DNA of 12,751 bases. It comes from Nannocystis sp. SCPEA4 (GTDB lineage Bacteria; Myxococcota_A; Polyangia; Nannocystales; Nannocystaceae). The notes under the pieces are model-generated. The model did no database searches, had not been told where the DNA came from, and saw only the letters and a program-made list of their open reading frames with translations. The stretch covers positions 1 to 12,751 of the forward strand of contig NZ_JAPNJX010000001.1 in assembly GCF_026626685.1 (NCBI RefSeq), given 5' to 3'. The position numbers and the translations under genes are program-made. Positions 3,871-4,877 of this stretch are shown one piece after another. The number at the start of each line of letters is the position of its first letter. Position 1 is the first letter of the stretch.

Positions 3871-3886
3871 TGGCACAGGGGTTGCT
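3871..3886 (+). promoter_or_regulatory. Sigma-54 (RpoN) -24/-12 promoter element TGGCAC-N5-TTGCT, immediately upstream of the EF-hand lipoprotein gene
   Basis: TGGCAC at 3871-3876, a 5-nt spacer, and TTGC at 3882-3885 match the RpoN consensus exactly. Given the base composition, less than one chance occurrence is expected per window. The predicted TSS is about 3896-3898, 2-4 nt before ATG 3900. Confidence 0.6.
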
Positions 3887-3899
3887 AACGGGCACTGGC

Positions 3900-4877
3900 A
3901 TGTCCCGCCTGCTCGCCCTATCCACGCTATGCCTCATCCTCCCCGCCTGCGACGCCCAGATCCTCCCCGGCGATCACGGATCGCAGAAGGACGACTTCGG
4001 CCGCGAAGGTGAAGGCTGTTGGGACGAGCACTCGGCCGAGTGCCAGGCCGAAAGCGTCGCGGGCCTCGAGTTCTGCGTGTGGTCGCCCGAGCAGACGCAG
4101 ATGCTGTGGACCGCCTGCCTCGTCGAGACCTGCGAGGAGGAAGGCGAGACGCGCGCGTGCGAGGGCGGGCTCGAACGCTGCGTCCGCTACACGGCCGAGA
4201 ACAACGGCGTCGAGCTGCGCTGGGGCGCCTGCGCCGAGGAGGACGAGTGCACGCCGGGCGAGAGCAAGTCGTGCGGCTGGGACGACGGCATCGACCAGGG
4301 CTGCGTCGCCGACGAGAACGGCCGCGGCGTGTGGAACCAGGAGGACTGCAACACCCCGCTGGTCCTCAGCTTCGGCGAGGCGATCGAGTTCGCGCCGGCC
4401 GCCGTGGCCGCGGCCGATTTCGACATCCACGGCGGCGCCGGCAGCTGCGCCCGCGCCGACTGGCCGAGCGCCGCCACGCCGTGGCTCGCCCTCGACCGCG
4501 ACGGCAACGGCAGCATCGACGGCGGCCGCGAGCTGTTCGGCAGCGCCACCCGCATGTCCTCGGGGACAGGTCCGCACAACGGCTTCGACGCCCTCGCCGA
4601 GCTCGACAGCGACCGCGACGGCAAGCTCACCGCCGCCGACGCGCGCTGGGGCGAGCTCGTGCTGTGGGCCGACCACGACGGCGACCGGCGCTCGACCGGC
4701 TGGGAGACGCTGCCGCTGGCCAGCTTCGAGATCGTCGAGATCGAACTCGGCTATACCACCCGCCGCGAGTGCGACGACCGCGGCAACTGCGGCCTCGAGC
4801 GCGCCCGCTTCGTCTACCGCAGCATGGGCCAGGAGCGCTCGGGCGAGGTGGTCGACGTCCGCGTCCAGTGCGAGTGA
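3900..4877 (+). CDS. Secreted Cys-rich acidic lipoprotein with three EF-hand-like Ca2+-binding loops; function unknown
   Basis: It starts MSRLLALSTLCLILPAC, a signal peptide with an LPAC lipobox. The N-terminal ~110 aa hold about 14 Cys in an acidic stretch. The C-terminal half has the loops LDRDGNGSIDGGRE, DSDRDGKLTAAD and DHDGDRRSTGWE, which resemble DxDxDG EF-hand loops. Stop is TGA 4875-4877. No other in-frame start codon lies downstream within the signal peptide. Confidence 0.75.
   Translation: MSRLLALSTLCLILPACDAQILPGDHGSQKDDFGREGEGCWDEHSAECQAESVAGLEFCVWSPEQTQMLWTACLVETCEEEGETRACEGGLERCVRYTAENNGVELRWGACAEEDECTPGESKSCGWDDGIDQGCVADENGRGVWNQEDCNTPLVLSFGEAIEFAPAAVAAADFDIHGGAGSCARADWPSAATPWLALDRDGNGSIDGGRELFGSATRMSSGTGPHNGFDALAELDSDRDGKLTAADARWGELVLWADHDGDRRSTGWETLPLASFEIVEIELGYTTRRECDDRGNCGLERARFVYRSMGQERSGEVVDVRVQCE

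Follow-up and report, generated by a model that had tools for sequence, protein, structure and literature searches.

An exact −24/−12 motif directly before a lipoprotein start codon in Nannocystis: a candidate sigma-54 promoter for near-leaderless messages

Introduction

Can a sigma-54 promoter lie so close to a start codon that its message carries practically no leader? This question is raised by a stretch of 12,751 nucleotides (nt) from Nannocystis sp. SCPEA4 (contig NZ_JAPNJX010000001.1, positions 1 to 12,751, forward strand)—in the following, the window—in which a perfect match to the −24/−12 consensus of sigma-54 (RpoN) ends 13 nt before the ATG of a gene for a Cys-rich lipoprotein. The GC content of the window is about 72%, and its gene content is like that of Nannocystis (Myxococcota). 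Sigma-54 promoters are the tightest activator-gated promoters of bacteria, and leaderless messenger RNAs (mRNAs) bypass the initiation that depends on a Shine–Dalgarno (SD) sequence.

Comparison with related loci indicates that the perfect match is a real and unusual expression design and not a chance match, and that this design is a conserved layout shared by the paralogous genes of a large lipoprotein family, in Nannocystaceae and Sorangium. The 164 base pairs (bp) between the lipoprotein gene and the preceding gene for the protein-L-isoaspartate methyltransferase Pcm (pcm) probably form a complete sigma-54 expression cassette, conserved family-wide, which would yield a near-leaderless lipoprotein mRNA. 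The coordinates of all features are collected in Table 1.

The −24/−12 motif and its conservation

The sequence TGGCACAGGGGTTGCT at 3871–3886 of the plus strand is the sole zero-mismatch occurrence of TGGCAC-N5-TTGCW in the window when both strands are searched. An earlier note, made from the letters of this DNA alone, had read an RpoN consensus at this place, with a chance rate of about 0.02 per window. The match holds without a mismatch, and the expectation for an exact match amounts to 0.01 per window, with a match in 1 of 200 dinucleotide-preserving shuffles.

The evidence that the motif is functional is comparative. Eighty genomic loci carrying relatives of the lipoprotein gene were compared, from Nannocystis, Nannocystaceae and Polyangia metagenome-assembled genomes, Enhygromyxa, Paraliomyxa, Sorangium, and Polyangium. 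About 59 of the 80 have a GG-N10-GC motif of this type (at most two mismatches, mostly at most one) immediately before the family gene and on its strand. Within the 673 kb of loci and window, both strands included, there are 59 matches with at most one mismatch, and 51 of these lie directly upstream of a family gene on its strand, versus about 0.4 expected at this position from the rate elsewhere—an enrichment of more than 100-fold. The motif is kept in orthologues as well as in 40–50% identical paralogues whose upstream DNA is otherwise unalignable, and the layout, including a phased upstream activator site, recurs in well over 100 related myxobacterial genes.

A profile of 50 de-duplicated family promoters, in which GG and GC are imposed by the motif search, shows what else is constrained: T−26 does not vary, C−23, A−22, C−21, and T−14 hardly vary, −11 is A or T throughout, and the spacer is variable. 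Six loci (L002, L004, L006, L007, L013, and L022) contain in-frame stop codons between motif and ATG, and, hence, the motif is non-coding. Its retention while the surrounding DNA diverged supports the view of a real RpoN-type promoter, as had been proposed in the earlier note, and argues that the −24/−12 motif is functional.

Some variations on the promoter region stand beside this general picture. In one paralogue group (L015, L027, L029, L031, L035, and L036), an AT-rich block AATTnnTCAAyGATCTCgnCG abuts the −24 element; it is unusual in DNA of about 70% GC, is absent from the window, and may be a site for a bending protein or an extended promoter element. Sigma-54-like motifs are also found 13–14 nt before the ATG of unrelated genes, at L052 4946–4961, L035 430–445, and L062 6008–6023 (all on the plus strand). 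These genes apparently encode signal peptides (e.g., MNALRITLPAALLCAPLFAC), and the short-spacer design may thus extend to other secreted-protein genes and not be restricted to the lipoprotein family.

Further sigma-54-like matches in the window were treated as chance. One with a single mismatch, TGGCGCTCGGGTTGCA at 1258–1273 of the minus strand, runs antisense within the NAD synthetase gene nadE. It recurs in L001—the nearest relative—at 1366 (minus strand), where it is kept only as part of conserved coding sequence, and is probably a chance match; intragenic sigma-54 sites are known in Escherichia coli. Three more at 6591–7468 have two mismatches and lack the GG.

Spacer length and Shine–Dalgarno sequences

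The distance from the last motif base to the start codon—the spacer—was determined for the 60 motif-bearing sequences, i.e., 59 loci and the window, with corrections by hand for L011, L042, L073, and L078. It amounts to 12 nt in 15 sequences, 13 nt in 18 (the window included), 14 nt in 4, 15 nt in 10, 16 and 18 nt in one each, 24–30 nt in 9, and 54 and 95 nt in one each. Short spacers of 12–18 nt, mostly 12–15 nt, are accordingly seen in 49 of 60 sequences and long ones of 24–95 nt in 11; none is shorter than 12 nt.

Spacer length goes along with the presence of an SD core, defined as GGAG, GAGG, or AGGA within −16 to −4 of the start codon. Such a core is found in 5 of 49 short-spacer loci, which is close to the 11.6% of random windows, versus 11 of 11 long-spacer loci (Fisher p=1.3e-8). 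This covariation is the pattern expected if transcription starts at a fixed distance after the −12 element: an SD sequence would be kept only where there is a leader to hold it, and none for a start codon placed at the 5′ end. Short-spacer genes start with ATG in 45 of 49 cases and with GTG in the other 4.

A C stands directly before the start codon (3899 in the window) in 48 of the 49 loci with a short spacer and in 10 of the 11 with a long one, at a background of about 36% C. This could be a preference of the initiation context or a genome-wide habit. Six family members that lack the motif (L024, L025, L028, L045, L063, and L079) share a box TCGACACTCGT about 25–40 nt before the start, followed by a GGAGG-type SD sequence, an arrangement suggestive of a subfamily that has gone over to a different kind of promoter and a normal leader.

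The candidate upstream activator site

Sigma-54 promoters of the canonical kind are served by a bacterial enhancer-binding protein (bEBP, or EBP) at an upstream activator site (UAS). Alignment of the window with six orthologous and paralogous loci reveals, besides promoter and ATG, one conserved upstream block, GATCGCAyGACnC...CGTCAnACC at window positions 3757–3783. It contains the imperfect dyad GCATGACGCGTCCGTCACAC, which is the sole match to the family UAS matrix in the 12.7-kb window (13.6 bits). The family form of the dyad is yGACr-N4-yGTCr (TGACG-N4-CGTCA in the window; matrix consensus GCCGCGACAGCGCTGTCGCGGC), and it is present in 46 of the 60 motif-bearing genomic sequences, at a background of 0.23 GAC-N6-GTC per 260 nt. 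Some loci carry two or three copies, 20, 31–32, or 43–45 bp apart; the window has one.

The position of the dyad is not arbitrary. Distances from its centre to the predicted transcription start (+1) cluster around 75.5, 86, 97.5, 107, 117, 129, and 140 bp, with a best period of 10.65 bp and a Rayleigh R of 0.85 for 31 de-duplicated sites, a value that 0 of 2000 random sets attained when each was scanned across periods of 7–15 bp. Classically, looping mediated by a bEBP shows itself in an upstream dyad on a fixed helix face relative to a −24/−12 promoter, and this signature marks the phased dyad as a candidate EBP site.

Two candidate EBP sites had been named in the earlier note, and they fared differently. 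The palindromic GACGCGTC, assigned there to 3766–3773 and actually located at 3764–3771, does lie in the conserved dyad. As a palindrome in its own right it was rejected: it is not conserved, relatives read GACACTCC instead, and the conserved symmetry is that of GAC-N6-GTC. The second candidate, the GGCATGTCCT box (3811–3820), is not supported; it is kept only in L001, its score with the UAS matrix is below 2 bits, and it amounts to no more than an ATGTCC half-site.

The dyad is not shared by all promoter-bearing members. Sorangium (L069–L071, L075, and L080) and Polyangium (L077 and L078) keep the −24/−12 promoter—Sorangium also the 13-nt spacer—and are without the GAC-N6-GTC dyad. They carry TGGCAC(A/G)-like repeats about 60–130 nt upstream of the −24 element, e.g., TGGCAC-N10-GTGCYA, which are probably sites for a different EBP. 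Since Sorangium keeps the 13-nt spacer with different upstream sites, the coupling of promoter and ATG would predate the split of Nannocystales and Polyangiales.

A six-frame search for GAFTGA across the 80 genomic loci gave one true EBP, in L052, where hisS lies between it and the family gene, and a co-located activator was therefore discarded as a general feature. This NtrC-type EBP is encoded in a Nannocystaceae locus. A sigma-54 system probably operates in the Nannocystis lineage: most of the Nannocystineae genomes examined in PMC12754779 conserve the bEBP PexR and ahpC promoters of the sigma-54 type, and the same paper cites Keseler and Kaiser (1997) for sigma-54 being essential in Myxococcus xanthus.

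Replication in metagenome loci

Motif spacing, SD covariation, and dyad phasing were all replicated in an independent set of a further 80 metagenome-contig loci, for which the criteria, matrix, and period already settled on the first set were used. Of the 72 loci with enough upstream DNA, 57 carry the motif, with spacers of 12 nt in 22 loci, 13 nt in 9, 14 nt in 3, 15 nt in 6, 16 nt in 1, and 25–29 nt in 14. An SD core occurs in 7 of the 38 loci with short spacers, compared with 9 of the 13 with long ones (p=0.0014). In 39 of 51 loci the dyad was found, and its 28 de-duplicated distances give R=0.705 at the preset 10.65 bp (p about 1e-6), with a phase within about 1 bp of that of the first set.

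Predicted transcription start and leader

From the fixed geometry of sigma-54 promoters, +1 is predicted at G3897, which leaves a leader of 3 nt, GGC. The family is in accordance with a start at this place: among the 50 family promoters, 60% have G and 74% have a purine at C+12, the base 12 nt past the C of the −12 GC. Most family start codons lie 14–17 nt after this C, i.e., 12–15 nt after the motif, so that, with the C counted as −12, the A of the ATG falls at +3 to +6. In the numbering of Sinorhizobium meliloti nifH the C is −14, and the A would fall at +1 to +4. The canonical family leader is thus predicted to be 2–5 nt long, with about 0–5 nt as the overall range. Some characterised sigma-54 promoters start 13–14 nt after the C; with such a start, messages of the 12-nt spacer class would be leaderless in the strict sense. 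That the spacers stop sharply at 12 nt speaks for a start at about C+12 or later.

The sequence before the start codon fits this prediction. No SD core was found in the 15 nt before ATG 3900, where the best duplex with the anti-SD sequence has −2.5 kcal/mol. The absence of an SD sequence had already been remarked in the earlier note, as had an essentially leaderless nature of the lipoprotein mRNA; the latter now finds support in the fixed spacing of 12–15 nt and in the SD covariation.

Proposed expression cassette and alternative explanations

Taken together, these elements suggest the following course of events. A bEBP would bind the dyad TGACG-N4-CGTCA at 3760–3779, about 12 helical turns upstream and on the correct face of the helix, while sigma-54 RNA polymerase would be held in a closed complex on TGGCAC-N5-TTGCT (3871–3886). 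DNA looping and ATP hydrolysis would then lead to a transcription start at about G3897 and to an mRNA whose 5′ end lies 0–5 nt, canonically 3 nt, before AUG 3900, with no SD sequence. This leaderless or near-leaderless message would be translated in a 70S-type manner to give a secreted, lipid-anchored, Ca2+-binding protein. The transcription start site (TSS), the dependence on RpoN and an EBP, and the 70S-type mode of leaderless translation are predictions of this scheme. Leaderless translation is plausible in Myxococcota because the pexR mRNA of M. xanthus is predicted to be leaderless, from a sigma-A promoter (PMC12754779).

Several points weigh against this scheme. The position of +1 is uncertain by about 2 nt, and the leader may be 2–5 nt long and the message, hence, not strictly leaderless. 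For every family member, the 5′ end, RpoN dependence, and EBP binding are inferred, the identity of the motif as a sigma-54 site is read from sequence, and the evidence for a sigma-54/bEBP system comes from related genomes. Since the loci are related by descent, counting them overstates how many independent events there were; de-duplicated data were used in the analyses, and the same pattern is seen in paralogues whose upstream DNA is otherwise unalignable.

Two further points of this kind speak for a first alternative, namely that the sigma-54 promoter is real and most of the translated mRNA stems from an upstream promoter or from pcm read-through, the near-leaderless transcript being minor or poorly translated. 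In this case, the lipoprotein would be made from an internal start on a leadered message, one that lacks an SD sequence. First, pcm shares the strand of the lipoprotein gene and its end lies only 164 nt upstream; a scan of the region for intrinsic terminators gave none. Second, a few short-spacer loci (e.g., L009, L047, and L068) show G-rich or GGAG-like runs at −10 to −1, which might reflect a further, leadered transcript that begins at an upstream promoter. However, the promoter-to-ATG spacing is conserved across paralogues, while an all-against-all BLAST of flanking open reading frames revealed no neighbour genes conserved among them, upstream ones included; the lipoprotein gene appears to be a stand-alone unit. 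Also, the distribution of SD sequences—random rate in short-spacer loci, presence in all long-spacer loci of the genomic set—is expected only if the sigma-54 start sets the translated 5′ end, and no sigma-70-like promoter was found in 3500–5100. This alternative is therefore rated as rather unlikely.

A mis-assigned start codon would likewise turn the message into a leadered one. Far upstream of ATG 3900 the reading frame is still open, with TTG 3882 and ATG 3762 in frame, so translation could in principle begin at one of these or elsewhere. Related loci rule out both codons: besides the in-frame stops between motif and ATG in six of them, relatives have CTG in place of TTG 3882 or have it out of frame, and ATG 3762, which lies inside the conserved UAS, reads CAC in them. 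At the N-terminus, 28 of 28 aligned homologues start 2–8 residues before a conserved Arg of the signal peptide, and the start position is the same in 27 homologues called by independent annotators. Downstream, there is no ATG, GTG, or TTG before the lipobox Cys, just as the earlier note had it. Because of the stops in the six relatives, the signal peptide adjoining the ATG, and the agreement of the homologue N-termini, the assignment of ATG 3900 is considered secure, and a different start is very improbable.

That the TGGCAC...TGC motif is the site of some other DNA- or RNA-binding factor, or mere chance in GC-rich DNA—the bare GG-N10-GC occurs 345 times in the window, the same as in shuffles, and is uninformative at 72% GC—is more improbable still, as the profile mirrors the sigma-54 consensus position by position (T−26, GG, C, A, C, a variable N4–5, T−14, GC, W), the enrichment is confined to one place and one strand, the phased upstream dyad is a hallmark of EBP-dependent promoters, and the variable spacer has no complementarity suggestive of RNA structure, with no Rfam family matched in the region.

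The lipoprotein product

The gene that would be governed by this cassette has more than 1,200 homologues, mostly in Nannocystaceae, the best being 87% identical and from Nannocystis pusilla; precomputed annotations place the family in PF26745. The protein consists of a Cys-rich N-terminal half and a C-terminal domain of about 170 residues (about 152–325, nt about 4353–4874). This domain is homologous to FrpC's Ca2+-dependent self-processing module (SPM; PDB 6sjw/6sjx), with E=1e-25 for the family profile and 8.5e-16 for the single sequence. Three EF-hand-like loops fall within the SPM alignment; the Pfam EF-hand matches are weak. At the position of the scissile Asp-Pro of FrpC, on the N-terminal edge of the module, the family has Thr-Pro, embedded in a C-N-T-P-L-V-L-S-F stretch that is invariant in 28 members. 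The product is, hence, best described as carrying an SPM-like, predicted Ca2+-binding domain and not as a demonstrated clip-and-link module. While the SPM proteins FrpC and ApxIVA belong to the RTX family and the type I secretion system, the lipoprotein follows the Sec/lipoprotein pathway and bears a Cys-rich N-terminal domain; the family would thus represent SPM-like Ca2+-binding lipoproteins outside that context.

Comparison with known systems

With GG at −24 and GC at −12, the promoter resembles those of glnAp2/NtrC (E. coli), nifH/NifA (Klebsiella), and katB and ahpC/PexR (M. xanthus), which follow the consensus yTGGCACGr-N3-TTGCW. Canonical bEBP promoters have a dyad UAS 75–140 bp upstream that acts in a face-of-helix-dependent manner, and the arrangement here is likewise. 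Three differences stand out. Known bEBP-dependent sigma-54 examples have leaders of tens of nt with an SD sequence, whereas the leader here would be about 0–5 nt. The UAS is yGACr-N4-yGTCr, as opposed to CACCG-N6-CGGTG for PexR, and to our knowledge also differs from other described myxobacterial EBP sites. Unlike in canonical systems, the EBP is not encoded near the family genes. The UAS motif is not known to have been described before, and a known kind of promoter would be joined to a leaderless or near-leaderless message.

From the side of translation, the locus would resemble the leaderless mRNAs of Actinobacteria, Deinococcus, Caulobacter, and rhizobia, with a start codon at most 5 nt from the 5′ end, no SD sequence, and AUG, occasionally GUG, as start. 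Those messages, however, come from −10/−35 promoters of sigma-70/sigma-A and not from −24/−12 promoters. In Bradyrhizobium, for instance, an extended −10 motif precedes leaderless mRNAs (PMC4842269). For bEBP-dependent sigma-54 promoters in myxobacteria, PexR provides an example (PMC12754779). A further known arrangement is that of LIC12503 and LIC11935 in Leptospira interrogans, sigma-54/EbpA lipoprotein genes directly after −24/−12 promoters (PMC5243855); the proteins are unrelated, and a leaderless arrangement or a multi-paralogue regulon was not reported.

Full-text searches found no literature that unites “leaderless”, “sigma-54”, and “enhancer-binding protein”, and the TSS-mapping papers examined among the matches for “leaderless” and “RpoN” keep these topics separate and draw no link. 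A search for myxobacterial TSS maps gave no data for Nannocystis or Sorangium. Sigma-54 promoters and leaderless mRNAs have been studied in separate organisms, and the searches gave no precedent for a link between them.

Implications

If the scheme holds, each gene copy would be headed by a self-contained cassette of about 160 bp made up of phased UAS, −24/−12 promoter, and start codon, so that a whole expression programme fits into this length without a control layer in the 5′ untranslated region. It would also mean that sigma-54 open complexes can start essentially at the start codon, and that Polyangia myxobacteria use leaderless translation for regulated, secreted proteins. We lean, with some reserve, towards a broader reading: among documented mRNAs, those of the family would form the first class that is both sigma-54-dependent and leaderless (leader of at most 5 nt), and a single bEBP specific for yGACr-N4-yGTCr would govern the genes for SPM-like Ca2+-binding lipoproteins of Nannocystaceae, several per genome, as one multi-paralogue regulon.

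On the practical side, with the spacing as a rule one can settle start codons and predict TSSs in these very GC-rich genomes. In addition, the analysis provides a new candidate EBP-binding motif with a putative regulon, and what would be a compact, tight promoter module for the engineering of myxobacteria that produce natural products.

Gene neighbourhood

Table 1 Features of the window around the lipoprotein gene (positions in the window; a dot marks a feature without strand).
Feature	Position	Strand	Remarks
PRPP (phosphoribosyl pyrophosphate)-synthase-like gene	21–683	+	
Glutamine-dependent NAD synthetase gene (nadE)	706–2688	+	
Protein-L-isoaspartate methyltransferase gene (pcm)	end 3735	+	Pfam PCMT E=3e-64
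UAS, candidate bEBP site, imperfect dyad	3760–3779	.	GAC (3764–3766)-N6-GTC (3773–3775); centre −127.5 from predicted +1
−24 element TGGCAC	3871–3876	+	GG 3872–3873; exact consensus
−12 element TTGCT	3882–3886	+	GC 3884–3885; exact consensus
Predicted transcription start zone	3896–3899	+	canonical +1 G3897, 12 nt past C (3885) of the −12 GC
ATG and short lipoprotein signal peptide	3900–3950	+	ATG 3900; translation MSRLLALSTLCLILPAC; lipobox Cys 3948–3950
Lipoprotein coding sequence	3900–4877	+	325 residues, Cys-rich

On the 3′ side of the lipoprotein gene, the minus strand carries genes for a Thr-rich lipoprotein, an AHSA1/SRPBCC protein, and an ArsR-type regulator, and beyond these follows a large Lhr helicase gene on the plus strand. 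The product of the convergent minus-strand gene at 5004–6524 matches no Pfam or NCBIfam entry. It is a lipoprotein with a long low-complexity region rich in Thr, Asp, and Gly (window 6126–6169 and about 6000–6500), which includes three exact 15-nt tandem copies (GGTCGTCGTGTCGC...) and a strong AT skew of −0.53.

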